A DNA stretch of 64,000 nucleotides from a virus (IMGVR_UViG_3300045988_137301), one strand, 5' to 3'; shown: positions 1,797 to 41,290, counted from the first letter of the stretch. The notes: a model not told the origin generated them from the letters alone. Made by a program: numbers and translations.

Positions 1797-1856
1797 CCAA
1801 CAGTATTATAAATAGCATCCTGTTATTAATTTAATATTTAAAATATTTATGTAAAA

Positions 1857-3929: not shown

Positions 3930-3930
3930 A

Positions 3931-4119
3931 TTATTCAATAATTAGTACCTCGTCACTCACAGTATGTTCATCTATTTTCTCTTCTAATTCTAATTGAAGA
4001 TCTTCTTTAGTGACATAATCTTCTAAAATTGAAGGGTCTACTCCCCCATAAAAGTTTCCAGTCATTTTTACTGGCTAAGTAGCTTTTTTAAACTATCCTT
4101 CTAGATAAATTATTCCCAT
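3931..4119 (-). CDS. Small hypothetical protein (62 aa) with 2 in-frame TAG
   Basis: ATG at 4119, TAA at 3931-3933, traced codon by codon: MGIIYLEG(Q)FKKAT(Q)PVKMTGNFYGGVDPSILEDYVTKEDLQLELEEKIDEHTVSDEVLIIE. Lies directly upstream of the tail fiber. Confidence 0.35.
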
Positions 4120-7100: not shown

Positions 7101-10100
7101 TTTAAAGCCTATTAAATAATCTATAATATTGAGGGTCATCCAAATAAAATCCCTAGCAAATACGTCTTCATCATGCTGACTCGTTAGACATTTATTTAAG
7201 AGTCCATCAAATAATCTCTTACAATAATTGATATAACACTATTGTAGATTTCCCGTAAAAAATATATCAACCTTACACTTTTTAATGGTAGTTCCCTCTA
7301 TATTTCTCTCTAGTATTTCTCTAACTGTACATTCTTCCAATTTTCCTTCTACTTCTTTGTAGAGTTTTTCTCCGTCTGTTATATATATAGTATCATAATA
7401 CTCCTTGTATTCGTCTGAAGAATTCTCATACCATTTCATATTAGGAAGAATTATGTGATCTACTACATAATAGCCGTCTTCTTTAACTCTAAAAGTACAA
7501 GAATCTAAATCCTCTGTATGATCATTAAGTAATACGTCGATTAATGTAGCATCTCCTATACTTACTTTTATTATGGTGTTTAATGTAGCGCTCTCACTAT
7601 ACTTATAAGAATCGTAAGAAGTTACAACTTCTATATCTTCATCAATGTACTATCCATATTCTTTAGAAAAATCTTCTATAGTTATCTCACCATTAATTTG
7701 TGTATGAACATCAATACTAAATTCCATAATATTAAGATTCAGATTCAGTTCCAGGCCATTGTCCGTACTAAGCTGGAGTTGAAAAAGCTCCTAGTTTACC
7801 CTCTTGTCTAACCCTACTAGACATGAAAACTCTAGGGTAAGAGGGGCTAATGTCCCTAGGGTAAATACTCCATTCATAGTCTCCAGTTCCAGGAGGAAGA
7901 TTACTTAGTTTACTAGCAGGCGAACCATCACTATAAAAGTTGTAGTCATAGGCTTTAGTGGAAGTCACCTCAGTCGTCTCCTGACCATGTTCATCTATAT
8001 AAAGAGGATTTCCCTCTTCATCTTGTTTTTGTTTATATTCTATTATTGGTTTGACACCTTTTGTTCTAGCATATATAGTCTAAATTACCATAGCAGAATC
8101 ACTCGCTGCTATCTCATAGAATTCCTTTTTAACACTCCCACCTGCTGAGCTAAATGTGGTTTTTTTCCATGTGTACGGATATTCTTCACTGGGGACTTCA
8201 AAGGTGTCTCCCCAACCGTCTTGCTACTATTTTACTTTCTCCACGTCACTGGTATCTAGTCTTATATAACTTATAGAAATATCTACGCCTCCAACAGCTT
8301 CTGAAGAGTTAGTAAGATCATCTATTTGTTCTAGTATAAATTTTATATCCTCCTCTACAGTAGAATTAGTAACATTTTGTCTGGCTTCGCTCTTTACGAA
8401 TTGAGCATAAGTAGTAGGATATATTTTGTTTTTGTCCTTATCGTATAACTGTGTATCTGTCATAATTCCCTAATTTTATCATTATACGGATTACCGTCTC
8501 TTAACTAGGCTATTTCAATCTCAGTTCTTTTTTCTTCGATGTCTAACTATCTATCTTTGTAAGTTCGTTCAGTCATGGCTTTATACCAATTTACCTAATA
8601 TTCTAGTTGTATCTTCTACTATTCTAACTAAAGTCGAGATTCATCCAATTGCTATATCTTTTGCTGAGCTTTCTACAGTTCAGAAGATAGTTCTTGAGCC
8701 TATTGAGAGGTTTCTTCTAATTTTTCCTAGAGCTGCCTTAGCTAATTATTTTCATCTTTTTGAACTTGTATAGCTTTTTTAACCTTATATTTTAAGTCTG
8801 TTAAGCTCTTAGATGTTAATGCCTCAAAAATAATATCAGGATCTATACGCTAACTTTTTACAAACTCTGGAATCATCTATTTTATGGTCTATAAATCCTC
8901 CATAATCTCTGTACTAGAGATAACATGAACATCATAATCTGTAAGAGTAAAATGCTCAGGAAGAGCTGTAAATACTTGCTAGTATTTATCTCCCAGAATT
9001 ATAGTTCCCTATAATCCGTTCTTGTAAACTATTTTTGCCTAATTTAGGCTGTCTAGAAGTATTTCACAAGTTATAAGATCCATTTGCTAAAAATAAGGTT
9101 TTGTGATGGTGAACGAATTAGCAACTCCTTGTTTGATATTTGTTACCGCATCTCTCTATTCTATACCATTCAATCTTTCCCTAAAGACTCCAGTTATGGA
9201 TGAAGTAGTCTGTTCTACTGATTGTATAGCTAATTCTATTGCTTGGACAGCCTACGCTTTTAGAGTATCATCAAATCCGTTATATATTTGATTTGGGGGC
9301 TAAGCTCCATCATTATTTCCTTCCTAGGAAGAATCTATCCACATTATTCCTCCTTTTTTATAAGCAAGCCACTTCTATACTCTTTCTGGCCATTTAACTC
9401 CTAGATTTGTAGGAAGTAGATTCATGTCCATAATAACTCCAGAAGTTCCACTATTAGCTATAAGATTGTCTCTATAATAATTCAATAAATCATATCGATC
9501 CTGCAAATGTGCACACTTTAAAATTAAAGAATATGGTTGTTGAGACCTGTTTAAGAAATAGACTCCGTTTATAGAAAGTCCACAAAAGTTTGGATTACTT
9601 TTAGATCTTATTACACTTTTATCCAAACCTCTCAGAACATATATATTTTCTCCAATTCTAATAGTTGTATATCTTTGCATTACAAAATCATTGTCAGTCT
9701 CAATCCATTCTACTTCGTATACTGGTATTAACTGAAACCTATGAGTGTTGTATTCGTTATCTGGATAACCTGGGACAGAACTTTCATTCAAATCATCATT
9801 TACTGCGATACAATTATCTGCAAAAACCCTCTTATAAGTAGCTGCACCATCCCCATCATACCATCTGTCCTTTAGCTCTATTAAATCCTTTTTTGTTAAT
9901 TCCTTTCCATATTTGGCTAGTATCTAACTTTTTGTTAACCACCTTCTAACCACAGCTCTATAGGAATCTCTAACGTATGGAGATTCTGGATTTCTGTCTA
10001 TAAAGGTATTTAGCGGATTTAAGACTTCTATTTGAATATTCTTCTTGCTAGCAGATTGCTTTACTTTAAAGAAAGTGTAACCTGATATAAGGAGGTCAGT

Positions 10101-10819
10101 TAGTAACTATCGAAGTTTAGTCAGTAAATCAGTTTCTCTTGACTGCATTATATAATGAACAACATTCTAAGCAGCTATCTCATACTAAGAAATGAAGGAC
10201 TAATCAATATCCTAAATTATTTTGTCTAGCTAAGTCTTTACAGCTTTATCAGTAATATCTTTTCCATCTATGAACTACAAAATCGAGTTTGTAAGATGGT
10301 CCTTTAGAAACTTTACAATTCCTTCTGTAATTTTTAACTATTTCTCTCTTGTTATATTTGTGATAGTATCAGAGTCCTTGCAAGATATTTTAGGGAGTAT
10401 AGGAGTTCCTAGATATTCTCCCACCAGAGCATCAACATGTTTTTTCAATAGTGGAGTAAATTCTACAGATGTAGGAGAACCTATCCCAAAATTCTCTTCT
10501 AAATATCTAAACTATTCTGGGTCTCTTTTTCCATTGTAGTAATTATAAGCTTTCTACAATTCATACTTGTTATAAACAAGCTCCGCAATAGCCTCGTTTG
10601 TCTTGTCTATTAACTCTTTCTCTTTCATAACATAAATTATGTTGTTCTGGAGGAAGTTTAGTAGCGTTATAATATTTAACTCTCTATAGCTTCCTATTTC
10701 TTAATTCTTCCTTTATAAAGGGAAGAAATTCCTCATCTGGTAAGTCTGCTATTATTACTAGAGGCATTTCTGATCTGTCAAAATTAAAAGACACCTTATA
10801 TCCAACTGGATATAAATCC

Positions 10820-13186
10820 TCAATTTCTAATCCCCCTATATACTCCATCTTGTATAAGTCTTTCATATACCCGAGTATCACTTGTTTCAATTCTGTATGG
10901 GTCATTGTATTCTTCTCTCTATATATCAAATTCGGGAGGTTTTCTATCTGGAATAATTCCAAATCTTTTTATTCCTTTCTCATCATAATAGTAACCAAAA
11001 TCTCTAAACTATTCAACCTCTTTTCTTACAAATGATGGCTATCTTCCGGAAAGTTCCTAATCAGCTAGTTCAGTCATACCCATAGCTGCAATTATATCGA
11101 ATTTTCCTTTGTTCTCATCATTATATCCAGTTAGCTATTCTAACATCTCTTCAAACCATATAGTATGGCAATAATCTTCTACAAAAGCAGCCGTTAAGTT
11201 AGTATGCTATTCTATAACAGTTTTGGTAGCAGGAGTTCCATATTGTTTAGTGCTTCCATATTTTATATCCGTTAGGGTAGCCTTTGGTCTTTTCATGAAA
11301 TATCCTAAATATCCCTTTTCTTTTGCCCAGGTAACCATACTCATTCTAGTAGCTTCTATATTTATCTTACAATTATAATATCTAGCTAGGCACATAGCTA
11401 TCTTATATGCCTCTCTAATATCTCCTGGCCTATCCTTATATAGAGCTACATACTAAGGCTCATTAGTTCCAAATAACCTTTTCTTTATAGTTATACAAAA
11501 GTCAGAAGGGTTTCTAGTTTCCTTAGAAGTCTAGTTAGCACCAATATCTATTCCATCTATCCCTGCTACGTACAAATCATTCATTTCCTTGTAGACGGGC
11601 ATCTCGAACTCCTCTCCTCTTTCTTCTGCTTCCTGCCTTAGTTTCTCTACTTGCTCCTTGTATAAGTCCGACCATACAGGGTGCTCTAGAATTTTTACTT
11701 TCCCCTTATTATTTGGAATCCACTTAAATCCATCAATATTATCCTAAGTATGTTTATTGTTTTTATAGAAATAGTCTATATATCCAACCTCTATTCGTGG
11801 ACCTATTTTCTTCAACCTGATGTTAGCTAACTAATCTGCAATAAGTATTTTATTAAACTTATTTATTCCCTCTAAGTTGAAAGCCTCTTCAGCATTCCAG
11901 CAACGTTCTGCACATTTTTTTAGGTAGTCCTCTGGTACAGCTAATAGATTATCCCGCTCCTCCTATAAGAATTTTTTATACTCCACAGTATTACATACTC
12001 CTCTGTGGTCCATGAATTCTGGATTCAAAGATTGTATAAAGTATGGAATAAAGAATCCACTCTCTATAGTAGTTCCGTCCTGAGTCCAATTATGTCTAAA
12101 TGGGAGAACCTTATAAGCTCTAGGATTATAATAGATTTTTTTTAAACCTTCCAAGGGAGCGCCCATATCTCCACCAGTTCCTCCAAATAACATGGTCCCA
12201 CGAGGCATACCCTACACCTCACAAAGTTCTTGACCTTGTACTACAGCAGTGTCAAGTCCTGGCCAAGATCCTGCCTCATCATATATTAACAAATCAACAC
12301 GATCTCCTCTAATATTAGATGGCTTGGAACCATTTTTTCCAACTACCTCTGATTTGAATCCTATGTCTTCAAACTAACCATTTACTTTTATCTATTTTCC
12401 AGATTTTTTTCTCAAATCCTAGTCAATTAGGCGTAGTTTGAAAAATCCTCCGCCTGTACAGGTATTTAAAAACGTCAAAGCATTGTCAAATTTACTGAAC
12501 GTTCCCTTAAGGAACATATCATTAAAGCAGGTAATCATGACTCTACTTCTTCTAATAACAGAATACATACGAGCGGAAAGAGAGGCGTTTATTTCAGAGA
12601 AACCTATTGAACGAGCTTTCATTAAGGCCGCATGCTTATGTAGCACCCTAGCCATCTATAGATAATGAAAGAACATATAATGTGATGCAAAGAATATTGG
12701 GAAGTCATTATCAGTACCCTCACCAGAGGCTTTCTACTAGTCAATAGTAGGTAATTGATAGAAGTTTAAGAAGAAGTAATTATCTCCAGTAATGGTATAT
12801 CCATTAACTGTCATTCCATACTTACATCTTCTATATTGTTCCTTCCAGAACTCATTATATCTCTTACTATCTCTAAGGTAGGGACAATACTAACCAGTTC
12901 GCCTATATATTTCTCTGGTTTCTGTAAACCAATCTGGATCAAAATCAAGACCATGTGTTTCGTCAATAGGTCTATATCCTGTTATTTCGTAAGATAAGGT
13001 AGGATCAAATACTTCTATTTTTTCTCCCTTTTTAACATCCCAGTAATCTGCATTCTTGTCTCTCTCTTCTCTTATTTTCTAGACAAGCTGCCTCGCTTCC
13101 TAGGCGTCCTCTTTGTATTCTTTTTCCTTTACCTAATCTATTATACTCTATATTTCTTCAGGCAATATTTTCTTCTTCCTTGGCAT
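10820..13186 (-). CDS. terL: Large terminase subunit-like protein (~788 aa) with many in-frame TAG
   Basis: Frame traced from ATG ~13186 to TGA at 10820-10822. Contains a Walker-B-like RVDLLIYDEAGSW and a nuclease-domain-like DLYVAGIDGIDIGANQTS. Embeds listed ORFs 12419..12655, 11963..12208 and 11207..11395 in one frame, joined through TAG codons. Confidence 0.5.
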
Positions 13187-13188
13187 AA

Positions 13189-13749
13189 TCAAAAGTCTCC
13201 TGGGTCATAACCATCAACTGCTCCTGCTCTTACAGTTGACTGTTCTGTAAGTTCTTTCTTAACCTAATCTTCTAGAGTTACCAATTCCTCATGAACCTTA
13301 TGTAAGGTGGCCATTTCTTTCATTACCTTTTCTGCCTAGAATATTGGTTTTCCGTTATTATCCCGTTCATTCAGATCCACAATAGTATCAAAATAGTCAA
13401 TAAACTAGTCCGCAGCTCTCTTTGCGGCTTCAAGCAACTTGATTGATTTGTTGGAATCTTGCAATGCTCTATATTTTCTGCAAGCTTCTCTAAATATAGG
13501 ATCATTAAATTCTGACTCAGTTAGTCCAGAGTCACTAATTGCTTCGTCATGTCTCTCATGTTCTGAATATTGACTATACGGACTTTTCCAATCAATAGCT
13601 AGATAGATATATGTTAGTTCTCTAGTAGCCCTATCTTTTTCGATAGATTTATCTCTCTATATTAAGGCTTTAAATTCCTTTACTAACAAAAGCTCAGGTT
13701 CATTTATTTCTAGCTACTTATTTAAGGTATTGTAATTAAACACATTCAT
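13189..13749 (-). CDS. Hypothetical protein (~186 aa), candidate small terminase, with in-frame TAG
   Basis: ATG at 13749, TGA at 13189-13191, 2 nt upstream of the terL ATG. MNVFNYNTLNK(Q)LEINEPELLLVKEF... Confidence 0.35.
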
Positions 13750-14630
13750 ATAACATTGGCATAAATCGTTGATTTGTATTATTTTCTTCTAACCTTAGAG
13801 CCACATTTCATTTTAGCTCCACATTTTCCTTTTCTTTTCATAACTATTAAGGTTTTCTGGGATCGTGTCCACTTTTCTTACTATTAAAATAATCTTTCTC
13901 GCTCGCTCTATTTTTCTCCTCTTGAGTAGCTTCCTTTGGATTAAATCTAGGATATTTGGTTCTTCCATTTAGGTCCTTAATACCTTTCTTGGTATGAATA
14001 GTATCATTAGGATTAATGGATTTTCTTTCCTATTTGAACTTCTGCACTGCATTTAATTTCTTCTATGTTTTTCCTCCCTTTTCCATCTATTTCTTTTGGC
14101 AGGATTTACATAGCTTTCCCCCTACTTTAAAGTAAGTCATTTCATAGCCATCGGGACATACTCCTTTTAATTTTTTATAATATTGTAGCTTTGCTCCTAA
14201 TCGAGCCATTACTCCTCCCTACATTTTCTGTATAAATTCTTGATATTTGGCTTTTAGTCCTTCTTCTCCTAGTTGTTCGGCGTAGGACTGTAAATCCTAT
14301 TCTGATTGTAGCTAAATTCCCTAGGCGGCCGCATCTTGAATTAAATAGGCCATAAATGCTTTTTGTAATTCTTCCTGATTTTCCATTGTTCCTTTAATTT
14401 CTATTTATTATTTTATCTAACTATCCTTTATTAGGATAAGGTCTTTGGTATTGAATATCGCTTCCTGAAGTAATCCGCTATCGGTAAACCATCTACACCT
14501 TAACCCTTTTAATCCCTGGTTATCTTTAAATAATGCTGCCTCTTTTCTTAGTACAAGCATTACTGGAGAGTGCATTAACTCGTGCTATCTTAGAGTAACG
14601 CAATCCCCAGGCTTAAAATAAATTTTCTCA

Positions 14631-15233
14631 TCAATAGTTTCCATGTTTCAATTCATCTCTTCTCTCAGTTAATTTCTCATTAACTACAGCCATTATTCTG
14701 TTTTCATTAACTACTACAAATCCTAATTTGTAGAATGGGACCATACATTCACTAGCTATGGTATAGAATACTATATCTCCAGGTTTTAAAAATTCGCATT
14801 TATGTCCAACCTCGATAACAGTTCCTACCTTGATAAATTGCTGTTCCTCCTCTATTTCTCCAGTTTCATTAGACTTATAGGTTGGAGTAAATCCACCTAA
14901 ATCTGTAATTAATCCACTTTTCGTAGTTTTGATTTTTTGAAATGGATTTTGTTCAAAGGGTTTAATTAGTGCATACCCATACATGGGCATTATTTCTACT
15001 CCATTCATATCCTCCGATAAGGACTTAGCATAGGATTCTAATGCTTCATTGTGTTTTGCGAATTTATCTTCAAGTTCATCTACTGCAGTATTAAACTTTT
15101 CTTGTTTCTCTCTCAATAATGTTTGATCTGCAGCTTCTCCATTCATAATAAAGTGCTCTCCTGTACCTTCCATCCCGGTTATAGCTAATGCCATCTTTTC
15201 TTTACTGTTTAACTCTGTTCTTAATGTTTCCAT
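14631..15233 (-). CDS. GroES/Hsp10-like co-chaperonin domain protein (standard code)
   Basis: Listed ORF. C-terminal KVGTVIEVG...LKPGDIVFY pattern is typical of the GroES fold, cf. T4 gp31-type co-chaperonins. Confidence 0.4.
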   Translation of the reverse strand: METLRTELNSKEKMALAITGMEGTGEHFIMNGEAADQTLLREKQEKFNTAVDELEDKFAKHNEALESYAKSLSEDMNGVEIMPMYGYALIKPFEQNPFQKIKTTKSGLITDLGGFTPTYKSNETGEIEEEQQFIKVGTVIEVGHKCEFLKPGDIVFYTIASECMVPFYKLGFVVVNENRIMAVVNEKLTERRDELKHGNY

Positions 15234-15239
15234 AATTCA

Positions 15240-15491
15240 TTACCATTTACCTAGATCACAATGTTCATTATCTACTCTAGTTTTATTCTCTAGTATACAT
15301 CCACACTCCCTACATACTTCTCCTAGAGAAGTATTTAGTTTAGCGGAGCATTTTCTGCAGATGTTTAATCTCTTTATTGACAAATCTTGATTTATGCCAA
15401 GTATATTAAACCACATACTTTTTAGTATTGTTAAAGGCTTGGTAAATATTGCCTTAATCCATTTCTTAGATATTTCTTTAGTGAGTATCAT
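15240..15491 (-). CDS. Small Cys-rich (zinc-ribbon-like) protein
   Basis: Listed ORF with CRKC...CRECGC. Confidence 0.35.
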   Translation of the reverse strand: MILTKEISKKWIKAIFTKPLTILKSMWFNILGINQDLSIKRLNICRKCSAKLNTSLGEVCRECGCILENKTRVDNEHCDLGKW

Positions 15492-15534
15492 ATAAACTTT
15501 ATTTGGGTTGCTGGAATTCCGTATAATAATTCAT

Positions 15535-15750
15535 TTACCATTTTTTAGCTGGACAATGTTTTTTCTCATTAGGTATCTTCAATTCTAAAAGGCACCCACA
15601 CCCCTTTATGTATCCTTTTTTTGGACTAATGCTTATGTCGTTACTTTCTGGATTCAAATATAGTTGTCCATTACATACTCCATCTTCCTGGTTACATATT
15701 GGACATCGTCTACATATCTGCCATCGTTCTTCTATTTCTTCTAGTGTCAT
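15535..15750 (-). CDS. Small Cys-rich (zinc-ribbon-like) protein
   Basis: Listed ORF with CRRCPIC...CGC...HC. Confidence 0.35.
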   Translation of the reverse strand: MTLEEIEERWQICRRCPICNQEDGVCNGQLYLNPESNDISISPKKGYIKGCGCLLELKIPNEKKHCPAKKW

Positions 15751-15752
15751 AG

Positions 15753-16667
15753 TTAATATTCAATACGTTGACGTCTTTTTCTATTTTCTGCTAATATAGA
15801 TTCTTTCTTATAAAAAGATAACATCTTAATTACTTCATCTTTTAAGTAAGGTAGGTGATATACTGCCATATTATCAGTATGATCGAAGTGTACCAAAACT
15901 AAGTCTTCAATCTCAAATTCTGGGTTTAACTTTTGAATCATCCAAGCATAGGTGCTTAATTGAAGACAATAATGATTAAAATTACAATCATCCAAATTAT
16001 TTAAAGGATATTTCATTTTCACTGATGACTTATTTTTTGAATCAAAAAAGCTCTTTGTTTCTATTTTTTTGTTAGTCTTCCAGTCTCCGATAATTATTTT
16101 ATTACCTTTTTTAACTAATAAGTCGATTTGTCCTGCTATTCTAAGTTTCCCATCTTCAGATACTCTAGATATTAAATACTCAGGGTATATACCATTTTCT
16201 AAGTCTAGATTATTATGGTCCTTTATACATTCAAACTTACCACCTATTTGATATTTACTAAGATCTATATCTTTTTTCTTTTTGTAAAATGAGTTTTCTA
16301 AATCTGCATGAATTCTAGTTCCTCTTTCGCAAGAATTTCGATTTTCTTCATCCCACATATCTAAGATAGTTTGCTGTTCTTTGTTGAACTCGTCTTCGGT
16401 AATATTATGAAGTTCAAGCAGAACTTTATCAAATTTCTTAGTATTCAACAGAGACTTTTTTTCAATAGCCCAATCTTCTTTAGATAGGAGTTTCTCCAAT
16501 GCTTTGTAAGCGGACCAAAACTCTTTATCAAATGGTTGGGTGAAAGAATGAATTAGAGTTGTTACTGATATAAACTTCTGTTCTGGTTTTGTAACATCGT
16601 AATAAATATGAGCTTCCTCTTCAAAAGCTATATTCCCATTTTGTTTTGTAATTTTACTTTTGTCCAT
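15753..16667 (-). CDS. PD-(D/E)XK family nuclease/exonuclease
   Basis: Listed ORF. 'GQIDLLVKKGNKIIIGDWKTNKK' matches the D...(D/E)xK core of RecB/Cas4/lambda-exo-like nucleases. Confidence 0.5.
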   Translation of the reverse strand: MDKSKITKQNGNIAFEEEAHIYYDVTKPEQKFISVTTLIHSFTQPFDKEFWSAYKALEKLLSKEDWAIEKKSLLNTKKFDKVLLELHNITEDEFNKEQQTILDMWDEENRNSCERGTRIHADLENSFYKKKKDIDLSKYQIGGKFECIKDHNNLDLENGIYPEYLISRVSEDGKLRIAGQIDLLVKKGNKIIIGDWKTNKKIETKSFFDSKNKSSVKMKYPLNNLDDCNFNHYCLQLSTYAWMIQKLNPEFEIEDLVLVHFDHTDNMAVYHLPYLKDEVIKMLSFYKKESILAENRKRRQRIEY

Positions 16668-16872
16668 TAATCATAATTCATTTAATCATTTGTCATATTT
16701 ATCTATATTTATTTGATACTTTTCAAGTATATTAATATTCTTTGTAAGACACAAATTAATATTGAATAGAATAACTTAAAAATACAAAACATGAATAAAA
16801 ACGAAGAAACCTCAGAAAGTTGGCATTCTAACTTACTCAATAAGTTTAGAAATATCACTATTGGAGCAGCTA

Positions 16873-17822
16873 TGGCAGAAAGTCCTGCAGTAATGATTGC
16901 TTCCGGATGGAGGCAAAATAATAAAGGAGATTATGTTCAGGATTAGCAAGATAGTGAAGGAGTTAAACAGTTGAGGGACAATTTATCTAGTATTTCTGAA
17001 ATGTCTCCAACTAATCCAGCAGGAGTTACTCTATTTGGAATAGGCAGGGGAATATAGTTTGGGTTATAGAAACTTCCCCAGATATAGAAAATGTTAACAC
17101 ACCCTACTTGGCAAAAGATATACCATGGTAGCCCATTTAATTTCACATGGAAATAGGCTAGAAACTCGTCAAGGAGTAGCATAGGATTGCATGTTACCCC
17201 TAATAAGAAGATTGCAGATTCTTTCAATTCTGGAAGTCCTGTTCTTGAGGGATACGCTCCTAAGCCCAAAGTAGAAACTATAGATATCGGATTCAACAAT
17301 TATGATTTAGTAAATCCTAAATATACCATGTAGGCGAAGCCGGCAAATAGCGGAAACTATTACGATATTGTTCTTCCAGACACTAAAAGAATACAAATGT
17401 TAGAAAGAGCAGGAGCTAATCCAACCATTTCTGTGAAGACAAAAGGCAAAAAGAGTGGAAATATTTATAAGCTAAACACTGAAAACACTGTTAATCTTAA
17501 TTTACAAAAAGAATTGAAATTGTCTAAATCTGCAACGCAAAAGGCAAATAATATTATACAAAGATCCAGAGCTGATTTTTAGAACAAGGATGAGATACTA
17601 AATAAGGAAACTTCTGATCTACTATCGAAAGACGGAGTTAAAACAATTAGGTATCAAAATGTTAATCCTACAGAAGGAGGTGGTGGGGAATCTTGGATAC
17701 TAACCGATCCTTCTATAGTTTGGAATCCTACCTGGAAACCAGTAGGAATTAATTTAGATTTTAGAAGAATCTCTCCTTTAATACCTTTGATACATGAAAA
17801 AATTGATAAAATTACTGAATAA
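16873..17822 (+). CDS. Hypothetical protein (~316 aa) with ~8 in-frame TAG
   Basis: Frame verified triplet by triplet from 16873 to about 17520, then joined to the ORF listed as 17397..17582 and on to TAA at 17820-17822. There is a 1-nt frame ambiguity between my count and the ORF track near 17397/17520. Confidence 0.4.
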
Positions 17823-17925
17823 TTATATCAAAAATTACAGAATAGAAAAGAGATATAAGAAAGAACATAAAGAATTTATAGAGTCTTTTCCCTTTATTAG
17901 AACAGAGAAGGAATATAAAAATATA

Positions 17926-18201
17926 ATGAATAAAGACTATAAGAATATGTCAGACTTAGAAAAAGAATAGGTGACACAGTATATAGGTATTCAATGTAGT
18001 TCCTTTACTACTAATAGTTATTGGGTCAGAGTATCTAGTTAGGATACAGAAAGACATTTAAGAAAGGAAATAGATATATTTGAATTATAGAAACATCTTA
18101 GCGATCCTACATTAGATAGTCCTTCAGATATATATTTAGGAGGTATACACTTTATATTAGATAAATTAAATTTAACATATTCTATATACAGAAACATTTA
18201 A
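17926..18201 (+). CDS. Small hypothetical protein (91 aa) with 3 in-frame TAG
   Basis: ATG at 17926, TAA at 18199-18201: MNKDYKNMSDLEKE(Q)VTQYIGIQCSSFTTNSYWVRVSS(Q)DTERHLRKEIDIFEL(Q)KHL... Confidence 0.3.
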
Positions 18202-18494
18202 TGAACAAAGTAGAAATATTAGGATGTCCTATTTTTAAGAGCGGAATTCGTATTAAAAAGGAAAATAGAGGTAAATTTACAGCTTCTGCCAAGGCTGCGG
18301 GATAGTCTGTGTAGGAACATGCAAGGTCAGTGTTAAACGATCCAAATGCAACCCCCTTGTAGAAGAAAAGAGCGAACTTTGCTAGAAATGCTAAAAAGTG
18401 GAAACATTAGATTGGGGGAGTTCTGAAAATGTATGAAAGTTTCAATGGGCATTTCGATAGTTATGCTGGGAATTTAAAAAAAAAGAACTTCCTA
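18201..18494 (+). CDS. Small basic hypothetical protein with in-frame TAG
   Basis: ATG overlaps the previous stop (TAATG). Frame traced to TAA at ~18492. Confidence 0.25.
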
Positions 18495-19012
18495 AACACT
18501 AGGAAGGAGGCAAAGCATGGATCACTAATTGGTTGAAATCTAGATAGGAGTAGTTTCAAAACAATTATAATGAAGCTAGATTACGTGTAAGAAACGATGC
18601 AGAAAATATAAGTAAGCAACCATACTGGGATAATCCAGAAGAAGTCTACTCTAGACTAATGCAGATTAGACATGATGCAAACCTCAAACCTGACTAGACT
18701 ATAGATAGTTAGATGTTAAATAAAATAAGAAAGAGAGTCAGTCCTCTATTGAATCAAACATTTATGAATAGATATACTGATGATTCCTTACTTAAACTAT
18801 TTAACGAAGTTGCTTATTCTAATAATAGAAATTATGAAATATCATGATGTTGTAAATTTATCTAAGCTGGGATACATTTTTATGTTACCTAAATTTGTAG
18901 GATATTTTAAATGGGATTTTGGTAAGGATTGTTTAATTTTTAACAATAAGGATTATAGATGCAAAGCAGACAAATTAGATATTTAGAATAGAGACGATTT
19001 TTATTATATTAT

Positions 19013-19246
19013 ATGAAGTTTATTTCTTTCTTAAAAGATGTAGTAACCTCATAGTCTGGAATTAGTAGCAAAAGAGTATGTGGACTACTTGGGTGGTTAT
19101 TGTGTTTAGGAGTTCTAGTGTATTGTACTGTTACTTCTAAATAGGCTCCAGTTATGATTGATACTATTGTGTGGTGTTGTATGGGATTGCTTGGAATTGA
19201 TTCAGTAACTGGAATATGGAAAAAGTTTGATAAGAAGAATGTATAA
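19013..19246 (+). CDS. Small membrane protein (77 aa, two hydrophobic segments, holin-like) with 2 in-frame TAG
   Basis: MKFISFLKDVVTS(Q)SGISSKRVCGLLGWLLCLGVLVYCTVTSK(Q)APVMIDTIVWCCMGLLGIDSVTGIWKKFDKKNV. Start and stop are in frame (231 nt). Confidence 0.35.
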
Positions 19247-19253
19247 TAAAATA

Positions 19254-19293
19254 GGTGAGCCTAGATTTAATTGTCTAAGCTCACCTATTTTTG
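19254..19293. terminator. Rho-independent-type terminator hairpin between convergent gene sets
   Basis: ggtgagc...gctcacc stem followed by tattttt. Confidence 0.4.
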
Positions 19294-19500
19294 GTTGTTA
19301 CATTCACAAGTGATTCCATTTGGTCCTGCCCACCAATATTTGTCCAAAGATGGGGTTCTGATACCGCTGGGCCAGTTATAAGCTGGAGTAATTTCCTCTA
19401 CTATAGCTTCCATTATCTTAAATAGTGTATCTAAATCTAGCTCCGGAAGTAGCTCATGAATATTAGTTATTGTTTTCTTATAGTCTATCATATCCTTCAA
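19285..19500 (-). CDS. Hypothetical protein
   Basis: Listed ORF. Confidence 0.35.
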   Translation of the reverse strand: MKDMIDYKKTITNIHELLPELDLDTLFKIMEAIVEEITPAYNWPSGIRTPSLDKYWWAGPNGITCECNNQK

Positions 19501-19738
19501 AAGTGTCGTTAATAATTGCTTTCTTTATTGTAGTATCTTTATATAAACCATATTGTAGTATATTTCTTACTTGATGGTCTACTTGATTCCATAATATATC
19601 TAATAATATAGAAGAATCATCTGAAAGACTATGTTGCGGATAGCTAGCCTTTAAACTGCTAAGTACTTTTCCATTAATGTAAATGTCAAATATGAAATTT
19701 TTTATATCATCTGTAGTTTCCATATTAGTACGATACAC
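19478..19738 (-). CDS. Hypothetical protein
   Basis: Listed ORF. Confidence 0.35.
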   Translation of the reverse strand: MYRTNMETTDDIKNFIFDIYINGKVLSSLKASYPQHSLSDDSSILLDILWNQVDHQVRNILQYGLYKDTTIKKAIINDTFEGYDRL

Positions 19739-19887
19739 TTAACTTATTTAAGTCATCTAGATAATTCAAGAACCATTGTTCGTTTTGTTTTCCTTCTTCT
19801 ACAATAGTATTAATTAAAGATTCTGTAGCTAATAGTGTTATTTCTGCTAGTTCCTCTAATTCCGATTTAGTAAGTTTGTTATATCTT

Positions 19888-20202
19888 TCAATCAAGTTTA
19901 ACATAATCCATCCAATCTTTTATATATGATTTACATTGTTCTAAATCTGGATAGATGCTTGTTACAGAATGCCCAGTTTTTGGATTTTTGAAGTGATGTA
20001 ATTTCAATTCTCTTTCCTTCTCTTCTGTGTTTCTATTTAAAGTTCTATTCCAGTATTCATATTTTTCGTCTAACTTTTCAATGCTGCACTCTTCTAATAT
20101 TTTCATATTAGGATTATTTATTATCTTATTATATTTTCTTTTTAAGTTAGACACTTTTATTATATCACTTCCGTTTAATACGATTGCTGCACACTGCTTC
20201 AT
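19888..20202 (-). CDS. Hypothetical protein
   Basis: Listed ORF. Confidence 0.35.
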   Translation of the reverse strand: MKQCAAIVLNGSDIIKVSNLKRKYNKIINNPNMKILEECSIEKLDEKYEYWNRTLNRNTEEKERELKLHHFKNPKTGHSVTSIYPDLEQCKSYIKDWMDYVKLD

Positions 20203-20267
20203 TATTATATATTTTTACCTAACCGAGGTGTTGCCCTACTAGGATTCGAACCCAGACTAAATGATTT

Positions 20268-21267
20268 CATTTTACACCGTTTTGCGGATTAGACTATCAC
20301 ATCCAGTCCTAAGACCAGTCCCTCTGTTTAGTCGTTCACGCTGCACGTAAATACTGCTTGCGCCTTGTCACTTGTTTGCTTCCAAGTCAATTAAGAGGGA
20401 TTCTACTTAAAGGTTATTTATTATTCTTTAAGCATCCAATAATTTGAAATAATAATTATTCCACAATTTATCAATGTTTCTTAATAGAGTATTTCTACAG
20501 GTTTTTAGTAATTTAGTTTTAACTAAATTATTATTCATTAAATATTCACAGCATTCAGAAATAGAACCAAACCTATTTAATTCTTCCATATTAGAATCAT
20601 ACTGTATAATATATTTCTGATTAGACTTTCCAAGTCCTGCATCTGAAATAATTTGTTTTATAACTGAATGTTTTACATTTAATACTTCTGCGACCTTTTT
20701 CTGATTTTTTAATTCTAGATATTTTCCTATAACTAAATCTTTTAACTCTTCTGTAATATCATATTTAGATTCAGTTATTTTTTGATTTCTAGAACCATAA
20801 GTATCAGTCTGACTGTGGCAATTAGGACATAGAAACCTTAAATTCTCTAACCTATTATCATTGTTTTCACCATTAATGTGATCAAGTTCTAATGATAATG
20901 TTCTTCCATTCCACTCTGTTATTCCACATATAGCACACTTGTAAGGAATTAAATTATCCTGTATAATTGTTCTCCTTAATATATTTCTATTATGTTTAGA
21001 ACCTTTACAAAACAATTTATCTTTATCTATTTTTTTAAGTTCATTACTAGTTGCTATTGCAGACTTTCCTCTAAAATTCTTTCCTGATAAATTAAGATCT
21101 GTCATTCTTTGTTTAACTTGCGAATATCCCCATGAATTTCCTTTCGTAGTATAACCAAGTTTAAATAAAACTTCTGAGGTGTTAAGACTTGACTTAACTA
21201 AGTCTATAAATTCCTCGTCTGTAAGTTTATAAATTTTATTTTCCATAATTATTAATTCAAATTCTTA
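20268..21267 (-). mobile_element. Group-I-like self-splicing intron (~1.0 kb) carrying an HNH homing endonuclease ORF
   Basis: Interrupts the tRNA anticodon loop. The 3' region contains a P7/R-S-like stretch gaacgactaaac...gatagtctaatccgc. The ORF fills most of the intron. Confidence 0.45.
20428..21246 (-). CDS. HNH homing endonuclease (intron-encoded)
   Basis: Listed ORF. CAICGITEWNG...ELDHINGENNDNRLENLRFLCPNCH is an HNH motif. Confidence 0.65.
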   Translation of the reverse strand: MENKIYKLTDEEFIDLVKSSLNTSEVLFKLGYTTKGNSWGYSQVKQRMTDLNLSGKNFRGKSAIATSNELKKIDKDKLFCKGSKHNRNILRRTIIQDNLIPYKCAICGITEWNGRTLSLELDHINGENNDNRLENLRFLCPNCHSQTDTYGSRNQKITESKYDITEELKDLVIGKYLELKNQKKVAEVLNVKHSVIKQIISDAGLGKSNQKYIIQYDSNMEELNRFGSISECCEYLMNNNLVKTKLLKTCRNTLLRNIDKLWNNYYFKLLDA

Positions 21268-21957
21268 AGAGTCATCTGTGCTCACCATTACACCATAGGG
21301 CAATATTTATTTCTCCTCTTTTAGTTTCTGTAACTCATTTTGGAGTCTCTCATTATCCTGTAATAAAGCCTTTATGTTAGCATCAAGATTTGCCAAAATC
21401 ATTCTTATTTGAACTATTTGCTCAAGCATATTTAGATAGGGCTTTTATTTTATTCTTTGCTACTGTTGATAAGGCTTTCTTGAATTTAATTATTCCGGCT
21501 CTTACTGAATCTATATTATCGCTATATATACATTCCTGGATTCTTTTTAGTTCGTCGTTTCCCAGAAATTCACAAACTGATACAAATAAATCATCATCTA
21601 GCTCTTCTATTTCTCTTTGAAAAGCTCTAGCTTCATTATCTTTATAAGAAATTTCTATTCTTAAAGAATTTTCATCTGAATTTGATTTTAAAGTAAAACC
21701 ATCGTTACTATATTCATAGTATCTATTTTCATTAATAGCTTTTACTAGTTCATTAAACTAGTTCTCGTCAAAAAATGTTTCTAAATTTGTTTTCATAAGC
21801 TTCTTTTGTTTTAGTTATATACAACTATATGGCCATGATTGTTAAATACAAAGTTAAAAAATTCTAATTGAAAATTCTTAAATTTTAATTATTTAGTCGG
21901 AAACAGGTACAGGTACTTTATATAAATATCCCCCTGGGGTTTTAATAAATCCGGAAT

Positions 21958-22815
21958 TTAGAAATTAGAAATATTATTATATAAGTCCAAAATTAATTTT
22001 TTAAATTCTTCTGTTGTCATATCATTCTTAGCAGTGTTTACTCTATTAGTTGTAATAACAATATTTCCTTCTATGTACCCTAGATTACTATCTATCCTAT
22101 CTATTGAGTAATCTTTGTAATTCTCCGGAATTAATCCTGTATAATAATCTTTAAATTCTTGCTTTAACAAAAGCCCTCTGATATAATCTTCCGATATGGT
22201 ATACTCCATTATTTTGCTTCTAAGTCTCCATCCTTGTTTTGACTTTTGATATAAAAAACTAGCAATTAGTTCTTCTTGACTAGTATTCTCTGTTATTACT
22301 ATTGGTTTTTTAGGTGAATCAGTTTTATAACCATGTTCCGTTTTTATTGCATTAGACGGAAGTAACCCTGATACTAGTTTAGAATTATTTTTTAAATATT
22401 GTAAATAATTATCTCCTACTATACTTTCTATATTAGAAATCATTTTATTCAAATTTGTAATATTTTCATTTCTGTTTACTCTCCTAGCTATTTCCTTTTT
22501 AGACAAATCTTCTGTAATATTCTGTTCCAGGCACCTTAGTAAGAAGCTTTTCTGAAAATTATTTAATTCTTTATTTAATATAAATCTTGGACATCCTACA
22601 TGATCTAATATTTTATATCTATGATAAAATCCATTTTTTGTGTAGTTTTCTATCTTTTTTAATTCAACTAAATTCCTTAGAGATTCTGCTAGTGTATCAG
22701 TAGCATATCCGAAGGTTCTGTTTAACTCAGTGCCACTAAAATTTGAAAATCCGTCACTCTCTTCATAGGCATTAATTATTGCCAATAATACATTTAAATT
22801 TTTCTTCATATCCAT
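21958..22815 (-). CDS. HNH_3-type homing endonuclease-like protein
   Basis: Listed ORF. The C-terminal IDRIDSNLGYIEGNIVITTNRVNTAKNDMT motif is characteristic of HNH_3 (I-HmuI-like) nucleases. Confidence 0.45.
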   Translation of the reverse strand: MDMKKNLNVLLAIINAYEESDGFSNFSGTELNRTFGYATDTLAESLRNLVELKKIENYTKNGFYHRYKILDHVGCPRFILNKELNNFQKSFLLRCLEQNITEDLSKKEIARRVNRNENITNLNKMISNIESIVGDNYLQYLKNNSKLVSGLLPSNAIKTEHGYKTDSPKKPIVITENTSQEELIASFLYQKSKQGWRLRSKIMEYTISEDYIRGLLLKQEFKDYYTGLIPENYKDYSIDRIDSNLGYIEGNIVITTNRVNTAKNDMTTEEFKKLILDLYNNISNF

Positions 22816-23070
22816 TATTTTTTTTAGTTATATCCAATGATACTATCAATTTCTGACATTCCCAAATAGTCCGGACTAAAAAGTCATATATCAATATTAT
22901 GTATATCTTTTGTTAGTTTTATATTAATCAGTTTATCTGTATATATAAAATATTACAGAGAGATAAGAATTATGGTGCACAACCCCTTTAGTCCCCCCCT
23001 GTATATTGATATAAAACTAAAATAAAAACAGAAATTCAAATTAAGTAATAATAATTTAAAATTTAAAGTT

Positions 23071-23511: not shown

Positions 23512-24804
23512 GAAAGGGGAGAAATCCCTTTTCTTTTAAATACAAATAATCTTTGTAGAAATGAACATAAGAAAAAAGTTTAAAACTATAAAGTGTTTGT
23601 ACAACTGGGGAACAATCTACAACCCAGAGACTGATGAAAAGTTAAACTTTAAGACTAAGCGAGTTTATTGTATAGCTTCTTGGGCTTGGGTCATGACCTA
23701 TCAAAAGTCAGAAAAGGATATTCCGGAAATAATCAGGATTGTCTTTGTAGATTAACTCTAAGGTACTATGAGTTATAAATAAAGTGCCCATATGAACCCC
23801 ATCATTGGAACATTGGTTAACGGGGGAAAACAACATCACAACAAATCAAAGTTTTCTGTTTAGTTTTAGGATTATATCTGGCAGCTTGGAAAGACAAGCA
23901 AATTGTGTTACTAATAGATTTAATGCTCATCTAGGGATTTTGGAGGAGAAAGGAAAGAAATTGTCCACTAAAAAGACCCTCAATTTCCGGACTTTTTCAA
24001 ATTCTCAAAAAACCTGCCAGAGTAGGAGTTATATAGCTCATACTCTCTATGAAAATTATCTAGTGTTTAGTCTGTAAAAAGACACCAAAAAGAAGGGTTA
24101 CGCAGAAAAGCCCAACACCAAAAATAACTGCTACAAATCTCATGTGCATATTCGCAAACTTAAGCACTATAGGATTTAGGTTGAGCTGTAAGGATTGGTC
24201 ACTTATAGCAATATTATGAGTACTGCTGATATGTCAGTGACCGCACATATTACATATAAAATATGTTATACGATTATGTTAGAAGTTGCCAGGTCTAAGA
24301 AGCCTGATTAAAATCTCTAGATAGTAAGAGAGAACCTCATAAGGGTTCATTTTCCATCTCGAACCTATTCGCAAGTTTATAGACTAGCTATCTATAAATT
24401 TAGTGAACGTTGATAACGTCCTCAGCATGGAAAACTGAGAAATAATCTCCTATCTTATTCTAGATATAGATAGGATTTCCCTACTGGTATAATGGATTAC
24501 ATCTCCCTTTAAAGGAGAAGATTCTGGCTCAAGTCCAGAGTAGGGAACTATTTAGTTGGATGTAGTCATATTATTATAATTATTATTGGATCATAATGGG
24601 TATGCCCTGAGACTATGTAGTTGTTGTGAAACAACTCAAAGTATTGTGGCACAGGAAGGCCTAACTTCTTTTCACTATTTATAGACTAAAAGGCACAGCG
24701 GTGCCTTTACTCTCAAGATAAGAACAACCTTTACGTGGTTTGAGAGATAAGTAAGCTATTTTAGCTGAAACTAATAGTTCTAGTAACAATTAAAAATATT
24801 CATC

Positions 24805-34363: not shown

Positions 34364-34483
34364 TTCCTACTTAGAATGTACTATAGTACACTGCAAATCT
34401 TCTATCTTATAAAAAGGTCTTGGATTTGCATTTTTGTAGGGCCTATAGCTCAGTTGGTTAGAGCAACTAATTATGAGTCAGAT

Positions 34484-34560
34484 AGGGACGTATCCCCTCA
34501 AGCTTATACCTTGTAGAAAGGGTAGTCGGTCGCACGTGGGTTCAAACCCCACCGTCCCTA
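34484..34560 (+). ncRNA. tRNA-like element (7-bp closing stem plus canonical T arm) nested inside the insertion
   Basis: agggacg...gtggg-ttcaaac-cccac-cgtccct. No standard D or anticodon arms. Confidence 0.3.
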
Positions 34561-34585
34561 CAACTTCTGGATTGAATTTTTAATT

Positions 34586-35182
34586 TTGCACCAAAACATT
34601 TGGTATTATGATTATTTTCATATATATTTGTATATGAATTACAATGATTATAATACACAGAAGTTAAGAGGTTTAAAGCGCAAATTAGAGCTGGTAAAAT
34701 CTCGTGGTGGTAAATGTGAACTATGTGGCTATGATAGAAACATAGCTGTTCTAGAATTTCACCATATCAATCCAGATGAGAAAGAGTTTCAGTTAGATAT
34801 GAGACATTTATCTAATACAAGTCTAGAAAGGCTTAAAGAGGAAGCAGATAAATGTCAACTTCTATGCGCTAATTGTCATAGAGAAGTACATAATCCTCAC
34901 TTGGGAATGGACGAAGTTGAAGATTTAGTTAATACTGAAGCCAAAGATAAGACGTCTTTTGAAAACATGACTGGGTCTGTATGTCCAGTATGCGGCAAAA
35001 GATTTCCTAAATCGAAGGGTAAGATATACTGTTCTAAGGAATGTAGAGATGCTGATAAACATTATCCCTCCCTAGAAGAAGTAAATGAGCAGTATGAAAT
35101 ACTTAAGAATTGGGAGAGAGTTGCACAGCATTTTGGATTAACTCGCAGAGTTATTCAAGGAATAAGAAAGAAAGACTCATAA
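34586..35182 (+). CDS. HNH homing endonuclease (inside the split tRNA)
   Basis: Listed ORF. CELCGYDRNIAVLEFHHINPDEKEF...LLCANCH is a His-Me finger motif. The real start may be an internal Met. Confidence 0.6.
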   Translation: MHQNIWYYDYFHIYLYMNYNDYNTQKLRGLKRKLELVKSRGGKCELCGYDRNIAVLEFHHINPDEKEFQLDMRHLSNTSLERLKEEADKCQLLCANCHREVHNPHLGMDEVEDLVNTEAKDKTSFENMTGSVCPVCGKRFPKSKGKIYCSKECRDADKHYPSLEEVNEQYEILKNWERVAQHFGLTRRVIQGIRKKDS

Positions 35183-40588: not shown

Positions 40589-40612
40589 CATTAACTAGAT
40601 TAATTTTTTTTT

Positions 40613-41287: not shown

Positions 41288-41290
41288 GAT

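Follow-up and report, generated by a model that had tools for sequence, protein, structure and literature searches.

We analyzed a stretch of 64,000 nucleotides from the virus IMGVR_UViG_3300045988_137301 (hereafter the window), whose relatives are phage contigs of 150-190 kb, typically ~185 kb. The features of the window are listed by position and strand.

1-14644, minus strand: TAG-recoded late block A, with tail proteins, portal, large terminase and others (PHROG matches to tail, portal and TerL); 135 in-frame TAGs in 14 genes
1857-3929, minus strand: tail protein, 18 in-frame TAGs
8460-10628, minus strand: portal, 34 in-frame TAGs
10820-13186, minus strand: large terminase (TerL), 23 in-frame TAGs, resembling crAss-like TerL
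14631-16667, minus strand: TAG-free block B, with a GroES-like protein, two small Zn-ribbon proteins and a PD-(D/E)XK exonuclease
16791-19246, plus strand: TAG-containing block C, 17 TAGs, ORFs without assigned function
18959-19246, plus strand: last ORF of block C, holin-like, with two hydrophobic 19-residue windows
19248-19291, both strands: hairpin of the bidirectional terminator type at the point where blocks C and D converge, with a U-run on each strand
19285-20202, minus strand: four small ORFs without internal TAG that follow the split tRNA, the last stopping at TAG with a TAA six codons beyond
20230-21302, minus strand: intron-split suppressor tRNA gene, tRNA-Gln-derived, anticodon CUA
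20230-20267, minus strand: 3' exon (tRNA positions 36-73), from comparison with uninterrupted alleles
20268-21267, minus strand: intron of exactly 1000 nt, inserted between U35 and A36 of the anticodon loop, starting UAAG and ending AAUG
20268-20437, minus strand: ribozyme-type core, with the proposed guide GGA (20435-20437), P2, P3, P4-P6, P7, P8, P9 and the terminal G (20268)
20428-21246, minus strand: intron ORF, 272 aa, HNH endonuclease (PF01844)
21268-21302, minus strand: 5' exon (tRNA positions 1-35, ending CUCU), from the same comparison
21307-21796, minus strand: two ORFs (21422-21796 and 21307-21429) immediately upstream of the split tRNA
21958-22815, minus strand: 285-aa TAG-free ORF heading the leftward unit, found in only 5 relatives
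23071-64000, plus strand: essentially TAG-free block E, with 15 further tRNA genes, radical SAM, SPFH, AAA ATPase, NAMPT, and SNF2-type and DnaB-type helicases
24281-24451, plus strand: RAGATH-14 RNA, ending so that tRNA(UUA) begins 27 nt later
24478-24548, plus strand: second suppressor-type tRNA, anticodon UUA, well-formed (58 bits)
61621-61877: a group I intron recognized by Rfam elsewhere in the window

When TAG was left open, each leftward ORF in 1-14644 held 2-34 in-frame TAGs and the rightward ORFs in 16791-19246 held 2-7 apiece, for 152 TAGs across 19 genes. By codon counts, TAG/(TAG+CAA+CAG) was 0.53 in both of these late blocks and 0 in 14631-16667 (minus strand). There was a single TAG in 19260-22830, and the few TAG-containing ORFs on the plus strand at 23-64 kb were mostly nested or had their TAGs upstream of the likely start. 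TAG-containing genes with PHROG matches have late functions (tail, portal, TerL), and the TAG-free genes have non-structural functions. The hallmark late genes (TerL, portal, tail) are full length only with TAG readthrough, and the replication and early genes have no in-frame TAG, the pattern by which a recoded phage is recognized. A first-pass annotation of this DNA had noted a change from standard-code genes at 14.6-16.7 kb to TAG-containing genes below 14.6 kb, and the counts on the two sides (0 and 135 TAGs) bear this out. The change occurs within a single strand: block B lies upstream of block A, with a 14-nt overlap into the first gene of A.

The partition was kept among homologues from 16-35 related phage contigs and is therefore not due to chance; block B was TAG-free in 16-21 relatives. 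The region 16784-18200 is missing from the relatives. At positions where the window has TAG, aligned homologues most often had TAG (277) or Gln (203), followed by Glu (63), in an alignment that scored TAG as Q and so has a mild bias toward Gln. TAA is the main stop codon in the window. These codon counts and alignments establish, at the level of codon usage, that TAG is read as glutamine in the virion, packaging and probable lysis genes, and not in the replication, tRNA and auxiliary genes.

Use of TAG as glutamine only in late genes is already known in such phages and is not new. It has been described in recoded crAss-like and other gut phages, together with a code-switch hypothesis (PMC7886860 (Yutin 2021); bioRxiv 10.1101/2021.08.26.457843 (Borges 2021); PMC10879173), and late-gene TAG-to-Gln recoding (genetic code 15) also in PMC9523058 (Peters 2022) and the Mgcod preprint (10.1101/2022.06.29.495998). 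Like the code-15 crAss-like phages, the window has TAG in structural, packaging and lysis modules, standard-code replication genes, a phage tRNA(CUA), a block-wise layout and TAG = Gln. Unlike in those phages, the code boundary here separates two overlapping genes that seem to share an operon, and the ORFs next to the tRNA on its upstream side contain TAG. TerL had 25-45% identity to crAss-like TerL over 70-98% of its length in a single-gene comparison. The best explanation, as one part of an overall account that we consider probable, is that the window derives from a crAss-like phage that infects Bacteroidota and has a large genome (~185 kb). From TerL similarity and the genome size of the relatives, the phage is a candidate member of the zeta crAss-like group.

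Blocks C and D converge on the hairpin at 19248-19291, which has a predicted stability of -25 to -26 kcal/mol (z = -7.3/-9.6). A simple terminator scan missed it, but the U-runs on both strands agree with the shared terminator proposed in the first-pass annotation. The TAG stop of the ORF at 19285-19500 falls within the hairpin. The rightward set was said to end in a holin-like protein at 19.25 kb; its TAGs are as described, but the holin-like label comes from topology only, as profile searches found no family match for the ORF at 18959-19246. The leftward genes at 19.3-22.8 kb, described as a standard-code set containing the suppressor tRNA, are nearly but not purely TAG-free. One TAG (21758-21760) is in frame within the ORF at 21422-21796, which has no other possible start. 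Homologues of this ORF in relatives have a median of 3 TAGs, and homologues of the ORF at 21307-21429 have 1 TAG. The tRNA gene is on the leftward strand, as claimed, but because TAG-containing ORFs precede it, the unit is not a clean early one. The 285-aa ORF at the head of this unit (21958-22815) had no family match in a profile search.

The suppressor tRNA gene is interrupted, as the first-pass annotation had it. Joining the exons gives a 73-nt canonical cloverleaf with anticodon CUA, in which the predicted exon-exon junction after splicing is GAUGACUCU|AAAUCAUU. The junctions were set by uninterrupted alleles in at least 35 contigs and by synteny at the locus. Removal of the intron restores an intact tRNA gene that differs from the uninterrupted alleles by 1 nt, a D-loop base. 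The tRNA has 59-61 of 72 bases in common with Bacteroidota tRNA-Gln(CUG); the mismatches cluster in the anticodon arm, and the match extends over the acceptor, D and T arms. It is the only tRNA in the window with a CUA anticodon. On these grounds the best explanation, again within the account that we hold to be probable as a whole, is that the UAG decoder is a phage tRNA descended from Bacteroidota tRNA-Gln(CUG), with the anticodon changed to CUA. It would be charged by the host GlnRS.

The 3' end of the intron has the pairings of a group I-type core, including the P4-P6 domain, P8, and a P7 that forms a pseudoknot with P3. In an alignment of the core with 40 pairs, 95.9% of cells were paired, compared to 33-46% in slid controls. 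Compensatory changes were found in 5 of the 7 pairs of P3 and in one pair each of P2, P8 and P9, with further covariation in P9 by eye; P7 is invariant across the family and so yields no covariation evidence. The conserved junctions follow the order of the RF00028 consensus (J3/4 AAUUG, A[A/C]GACUA, GAUAGUCU-AAUC, the P9 hairpin and the terminal G), in a comparison with that consensus and with the intron at 61621-61877 that was made by eye and is unscored. The last intron nucleotide is G in all members examined except L165 (Bohxovirus). U(-1) before the 5' splice site is invariant in the family, and both subfamilies have GGA, as part of UUGGAUG, immediately 5' of P2, though their P2 sequences are wholly different. 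The proposed P1 has 3 bp only (UCU/GGA) and is backed by conservation; the exon CUCU is invariant, which makes covariation impossible. The Rfam RF00028 covariance model matched neither this intron nor any of its homologues, even at E <= 10. RF00028 is a detector and not a defining property; in this intron an 820-nt ORF separates P1 from the guide, and P4-P6 is reduced. We therefore speak of a predicted group I architecture and not of a proven group I member.

The intron ORF matches PF01844 with 24.1 bits (cut-off 21.4) over residues 104-146, and resembles at the DNA level annotated HNH endonucleases of other phages. The P1 loop holds this ORF, whose final codons overlap P2 and the proposed guide in the UUGGAUG region. 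There were no TAGs in 10 homologues, and the reading frame is intact in all members. The HNH enzyme would be responsible for homing.

The intron belongs to a family of ~28 homologues, 16 from viral and GenBank contigs plus 12 from metagenomes. Its members occupy at least 8 tRNA(CUA) backbones, always at CUCU|AA(A/C), and the only place where the family was found here is the anticodon loop of amber-suppressor tRNA genes of phages. Presence of the intron is polymorphic in at least two phage lineages, with empty sites in 35 and 21 contigs; in the lineage of the window, at least 35 relatives with the same gene order and ~80% nucleotide identity have an uninterrupted tRNA at the syntenic site. Sporadic presence across many unrelated backbones is what marks a selfish homing element. 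At nine of the intron-bearing loci TAG recoding is clear and the surrounding 5-13 kb hold no other suppressor, which indicates that the split gene is functional. Two relatives in the intron family (L165 and L163) come from genomes without obvious local TAG recoding.

Known introns of tRNA genes share several of these properties: they too interrupt the anticodon loop, have a compact core and pair exon with guide over a very short stretch, and the tRNA-fMet intron encodes an endonuclease that targets the anticodon region. The differences are a phage-encoded nonsense suppressor as host gene, insertion at 35/36, an HNH ORF in the P1 loop and the silence of RF00028. According to a review (PMC3984707), every phage intron described up to 2014 interrupted a protein-coding gene, although phages have many tRNA genes. 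The family described here resembles those phage group I introns that encode HNH or GIY-YIG homing endonucleases (PMC3984707) in combining a mobile intron with an endonuclease, in its sporadic presence in close relatives and in its standard-code ORF, but it is present in tRNA genes only. The P7 sequence of the tRNA intron is identical to that of the intron at 61621-61877 (ACGACUA/AUAGUCU). Our searches turned up no earlier description of a phage suppressor tRNA split by an intron, and an intron in a suppressor tRNA is absent from the code-15 literature as searched (Yutin 2021, Borges 2021, Peters 2022, Mgcod). Intron-split tRNA genes could account for some of the 'missing' suppressors in recoded phages.

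We propose that a mobile intron, 1000 nt long and with group I architecture, brought a gene for an HNH homing endonuclease with it when it invaded the tRNA between anticodon bases 35 and 36. The primary transcript would then need splicing to give a working suppressor, with the guide GGA pairing with the exon UCU and the terminal G being used, presumably autocatalytically. Splicing would have to be efficient, since the interrupted gene is found in many phages that depend on TAG. The late genes are full of TAG and so cannot be completed without a UAG-decoding tRNA; translation of late proteins would depend on the suppressor supplied by the phage, in agreement with the published hypothesis of late-gene gating. 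The intron would be a tolerated passenger: it is most likely a selfish homing element and not a timer, given that the TAG partition exists without it. This overall explanation, a recoded crAss-like phage with a split suppressor and a selfish intron, is probable. The first-pass annotation had suggested that TAG readthrough is a timing device. By logic, the 19 late genes do need a UAG-decoding tRNA, but the comparisons speak against the part given to the intron, as the relatives with uninterrupted tRNAs keep the partition. The timing-device idea is itself a published hypothesis, for which sequence alone is insufficient as proof.

The partition may record the expression program and not control it, if TAG piled up only in genes expressed after the suppressor is present and was lethal in genes expressed earlier. 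The uniform TAG/Gln ratio over the late genes, with no focus on particular regulators, fits this reading, as do the free exchange of TAG and CAA/CAG among relatives, the boundary inside an apparent operon at 14631-14644, which fits gene-by-gene tolerance, and the stepwise accumulation of TAG after suppressor acquisition described by Borges et al. (10.1101/2021.08.26.457843). However, lysis genes are preferentially recoded in crAss-like phages (Borges et al.), a further advantage, for instance the prevention of premature lysis, stays compatible, and the passive and active models are inseparable from sequence by itself. Such a passive origin is a serious candidate, though we lean somewhat against it.

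Alternatively, the intron could have a putative effect on timing, in which slow or regulated splicing, perhaps blocked by ribosomes on the intron ORF, delays the mature suppressor and sets the timing of late proteins. The absolute dependence of the late genes on UAG decoding, the split gene being the only source of a CUA tRNA in the window and the overlap of the ORF end with the conserved UUGGAUG/P2 region are consistent with this. There is also a precedent in the theta (minimal HDV-like) ribozymes, which adjoin phage suppressor tRNAs and have a proposed part in the code switch through ribozyme-dependent tRNA maturation (PMC10879173). As with theta ribozymes, a catalytic RNA is physically coupled to the suppressor tRNA here, and maturation would need an RNA-catalyzed step, but theta ribozymes cleave the 3' trailer and the element here is a mobile intron inside the anticodon loop. 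Rfam reported no theta ribozyme beside either suppressor-type tRNA in the window. The distribution expected of a selfish element, the many close relatives with the same partition and no intron, the presence of a second suppressor-type tRNA and the lack of any regulatory element found make a timer unlikely.

A role of the suppressor mainly in harming host translation, through UAG readthrough in the host and impaired defense proteins, has been suggested (PMC7886860; PMC12386605, the zeta-crAss paper). Two suppressor-type tRNAs per genome and the intron in L165 and L163 would suit such a role. We consider it decidedly unlikely as the main function, since the 152 TAGs in essential late genes make decoding of the phage's own genes sufficient and necessary, although the two roles are not mutually exclusive.

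Finally, the second suppressor-type tRNA overturns the implication that the split tRNA is the sole suppressor. Anticodons of the ochre type recognize both UAA and UAG. In principle tRNA(UUA) could decode UAG by wobble, which might make the split gene partly dispensable in this phage. That the split gene is a dead copy inactivated by an intron that Rfam does not recognize, with UAG decoded by the well-formed tRNA(UUA) or a host factor, is very improbable: the exons are one base from intact alleles, compensatory changes have kept the core pairings and the ORF is intact throughout the family, strongly recoded loci in other lineages hold only the split gene within 5-13 kb, and a UUA suppressor would also read TAA, the main stop. 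The tRNA at 24478-24548 has UUA here and CUA in other relatives.

We found that codon usage in the window is sharply divided by gene and that the tRNA predicted to read the reassigned codon is split by an intron belonging to a family inserted at one position of tRNA(CUA). The window is AT-rich (G+C ~34%), and its + strand has 16 conventional tRNA genes. The leftward ORFs of 1-14.6 kb are full-length when TAG is read through, and encode tail proteins, the portal and a large terminase that resembles those of crAss-like phages (25-45% identity):

8460-10628, - strand: portal, full-length with TAG readthrough
10820-13186, - strand: large terminase, full-length with TAG readthrough

The nearest IMG/VR relatives are contigs of ~150-190 kb with ~80% DNA identity and conserved gene order, a size in keeping with the large 'zeta' crAss-like phages described by Yutin et al. 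(PMC7886860). There were no matches to 14600-23000 among GenBank phages by megablast.

The first-pass annotation had proposed that the genome is partitioned by TAG usage. Codon counts show that the partition is real and strong, and the gene-by-gene pattern is kept across 16-35 related contigs. TAG makes up 53% of glutamine codons in each of the two late blocks. The regions compared were:

1-14644, - strand: late block, 135 TAGs in 14 genes
14631-16667, - strand: GroES-like protein, two Zn-ribbon proteins and PD-(D/E)XK exonuclease, no TAG
16791-19246, + strand: late block, 17 TAGs in 5 genes
19260-22830, - strand: leftward set, 1 TAG
23-64 kb, + strand: radical SAM, SPFH, AAA, NAMPT, SNF2-type and DnaB-type proteins, essentially TAG-free in real genes

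In alignments with relatives, TAGs of the window lay opposite TAG (277) or glutamine (203), other residues being far rarer, and TAG stands for glutamine. It follows from the sequence that the late proteins depend on a UAG decoder supplied by the phage, as had been suggested. Recoding of TAA, hinted at by a second tRNA with anticodon UUA, was unsupported: the terminase, portal and other late ORFs are complete with TAA and TGA as stops.

The partition does not follow transcription units. The leftward genes at 19.3-22.8 kb had been taken as a standard-code set, which holds for the four TAG-free ORFs 3' of the suppressor tRNA but not for the two ORFs 5' of it. The first of these, 21422-21796 (-), contains TAG in frame at codon 13 (21758-21760) and offers no other start, and its homologues in relatives have a median of 3 TAGs; the next, a 40-codon ORF at 21307-21429 (-), has 1 TAG in relatives. 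The suppressor tRNA therefore has TAG-using ORFs upstream on its own strand. Similarly, the code boundary at 14.63 kb falls between genes that overlap by 14 nt (14631-14644, -) in what is apparently one leftward operon, and the partition is thus gene-wise. A few TAG-free genes (19267-19500, -; 40604-41305, +; 41360-41680, +) stop at TAG with a TAA or TGA 2-6 codons beyond, and a short C-terminal extension of their products is expected once the suppressor is active.

The reported intron-split suppressor tRNA was confirmed. Its halves (21268-21302 and 20230-20267, -) lie exactly 1000 nt apart, and once joined form a canonical 73-nt cloverleaf with anticodon CUA. An uninterrupted form of this tRNA is present in at least 35 IMG/VR contigs, differs from the joined exons at one D-loop base, and has the anticodon loop CUCUAAA, which therefore places the insertion between U35 and A36 of the CUA anticodon. 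In relatives, the intron-less allele is at the syntenic locus; in the related contig L009 it spans 4969-5041. The predicted exon-exon junction is ...CAGAUGACUCU^AAAUCAUUUAG... (caret, splice site), and the exon-intron junctions are ...GACUCU^UAAGAAUU... and ...GUAAAAUG^AAAUCA.... With introns allowed, ARAGORN instead called a tRNA-Lys(CUU) interrupted at position 38 by a 1000-nt intron. This call is contradicted by the junction of the uninterrupted alleles (CUCU^AAA), which is also the only one that leaves a U before the intron and a G at its end. In its acceptor, D and T arms the tRNA is of the Bacteroidota tRNA-Gln(CUG) type (59-61 of 72 bases identical, with differences mostly in the anticodon arm), a match that would fit charging with glutamine by the host enzyme.

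The intron begins with UAAG and ends with AAUG. Its final 170 nt form a compact structured core, and most of the remainder is a single ORF:

20428-21246, - strand: 272-codon intron ORF with an HNH motif (PF01844), starting 21 nt into the intron

None of the 10 homologues of this ORF contains a TAG codon. We scored core pairing on an alignment of 11 homologues, using a structure written by hand. For P2, P3, P4-P6, P7 (a pseudoknot with P3), P8 and P9, 95.9% of cells were paired, compared to 33-46% with the partners slid. Both sides had changed in five of the seven pairs of P3, and P9 and P2 showed further covariation between the two subfamilies of tRNA intron. The conserved junctions (AAUUG after P3, A-CGACUA, P3', P8, GAUAGUCU-AAUC, the P9 hairpin and a terminal G) agree in order and sequence with the consensus line of the Rfam group I intron model (RF00028) and with a group I intron at 61621-61877 of the window. 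An invariant UUGGAUG lies directly 5' of P2, also in the second subfamily despite its entirely different P2. The GGA of this motif (20435-20437, -) could base-pair with the exon's UCU, forming a U.G pair at the splice site, and would then be a guide sequence at the canonical position. On this reading, the ORF would occupy the P1 loop, with its last codons and stop codon overlapping the guide sequence and P2.

Searches with RF00028 gave no group I match in the full intron, in the 3' core only, or in 13 + 20 related loci; 20 unrelated loci with the P7 motif likewise went unrecognised, which makes that test uninformative. Because Rfam is silent, the proposed P1 has no more than 3 bp, and the terminal G is absent from one homologue, we describe the intron as having group I architecture; it is probably self-splicing. 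Two other pairings were rejected. The P8 loop UCUUAGGA could serve as a guide in the window (8 bp with the splice site), but the intron-side pairing is lost in homologues and P8 itself covaries; a long-range GGAU/AUCC pairing from RNAalifold clashes with the covarying P9. The intron at 61621-61877 (+) is recognised by Rfam (57 bits), shares its P7 sequence with the tRNA intron, and appears to break reading frames at ~60898-62337.

Using core-motif searches, we identified 16 homologues of the intron among viral and GenBank contigs, and metagenomes yielded another 12. In every case the insertion site was the anticodon loop of a tRNA(CUA), at CUCU^AA(A/C), and the exons represent at least eight distinct tRNA backbones. 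For a second backbone, empty sites (21 contigs) were found beside occupied ones. This distribution is that expected of a homing intron. Clear TAG recoding was seen at nine of the intron-bearing loci, and since such phages need UAG decoding, this implies that splicing works in vivo. One copy, of subfamily 2, is in a tRNA(CUA) at 2500-3600 of PV686213.1 (L165, a published crAss-like genome classified as Bohxovirus sp.), where the record has no tRNA and gives the intron ORF as 'hypothetical protein'; the terminal G is missing from this copy, and the local genes are without obvious TAG recoding. In the metagenome contig CYGL01000901.1 (L189), two matches to the ORF-end motif lie ~950 nt apart, and one intron core seems to run directly into the 5' portion of an endonuclease ORF, possibly a tandem or rearranged copy of the intron.

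The split gene had been proposed to make the code partition a timing switch. The literature contains both readings, the partition as an active lysis timer and the partition as a record of which genes are expressed after the suppressor (10.1101/2021.08.26.457843; PMC7886860; PMC12386605; PMC10879173). In the window, the decoder gene must be spliced, and the most likely view of the intron is that of a selfish element, tolerated since it removes itself. Every late protein would need the spliced product, and the end of the intron ORF runs into the proposed guide sequence and P2. These features could point to a co-opted regulator rather than a passenger: HNH-bearing group I-type introns specialised on phage amber-suppressor anticodon loops, in which the balance between endonuclease translation and splicing sets the threshold or timing of the code switch. 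We consider this unlikely, and favor the tolerated selfish element.

A second suppressor-type tRNA weakens the case for the split gene as sole controller of the switch:

24478-24548, + strand: well-formed tRNA, anticodon UUA; a RAGATH-14 RNA (174 bits) lies 27 nt upstream, and the pair spans 24281-24548

A UUA anticodon can read both UAG and UAA, and this tRNA is expected to read TAA, the main stop codon of the window, as well. Five relatives share the UUA anticodon of the window and five others have CUA instead, the stems differing in a compensatory manner; in every relative checked, RAGATH-14 precedes this tRNA. Two relatives with both suppressor tRNAs (L288 and L289, genome contigs of 186 kb and 153 kb) sit in MAGs that carry the bacterial labels Bacteroides sp. 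and Clostridium sp., and are likely phage contigs mis-binned into them.

The convergent units were said to share a terminator and to include a holin-like protein. A hairpin at 19248-19291, followed by U-runs, was missed by a simple terminator scan and confirmed by folding (z = -7.3 and -9.6 versus shuffles on the two strands). The TAG stop at 19285-19287 falls within it. The last rightward ORF (18959-19246) does have two hydrophobic segments, but no family match, so its likeness to holins is one of topology only. Because PHROG and Pfam gave nothing for the proteins of the 16791-19246 block, including this two-TM protein, a 'lysis cassette' at 16.8-19.2 kb is at most a candidate. A sigma-70 promoter scan did not rise above shuffles, the Bacteroidetes-type TTTG...TAnnTTTG motif was not enriched, and the CCCCAGGGGG motif upstream of ORF 21796 did not recur. 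All promoter-motif routes to temporal classes thus failed, and we draw no inference about the timing of transcription.

The TAG partition and the idea of a temporal switch have been published already, and our data add little to them. Our literature search turned up no description of an intron within a phage suppressor tRNA, and according to a 2014 review the phage group I introns known then were all in protein-coding genes (PMC3984707). As far as we found, self-splicing introns had not been reported in tRNA genes of phages, and the present ones would be the first. A family restricted to tRNA(CUA) extends the target range of phage group I introns, and its HNH protein may be a natural endonuclease directed at a sequence of the anticodon loop. 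Recoded phage genomes without a detectable suppressor tRNA have been described (Yutin et al., PMC7886860; zeta-crAss paper, PMC12386605). Default ARAGORN found a suppressor in none of 16 intron-bearing loci; since default tRNA finders miss the split gene, intron-aware searches could recover missing suppressors, and intron-split genes could be one concrete explanation for part of this gap. Phages with and without the intron, otherwise ~80% identical, occur naturally, making a direct test of the code switch possible, and spliced and unspliced suppressor could be measured by a single junction-specific assay.

Two segments, 16784-18200 and 21960-22973, are missing from most close relatives (e.g., the related contig L009) and look like recent insertions. 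The former contains two TAG-containing ORFs without known function (343 and 135 aa). The latter contains a 285-aa TAG-free ORF that had no family match and whose C-terminus resembles a degenerate HNH-like motif by eye only. In its intron mode, ARAGORN reported a tRNA-His(AUG) with a 32-nt intron at 34438-34561 (+), within ORF 34364-35182, probably a false positive of this permissive mode. A 104-nt tRNA-like sequence at 41291-41394 (+), scored by Rfam as tRNA (45 bits) with ARAGORN silent, has two consecutive T-arm-like hairpins and could represent either an insertion-bearing tRNA or a fused remnant.
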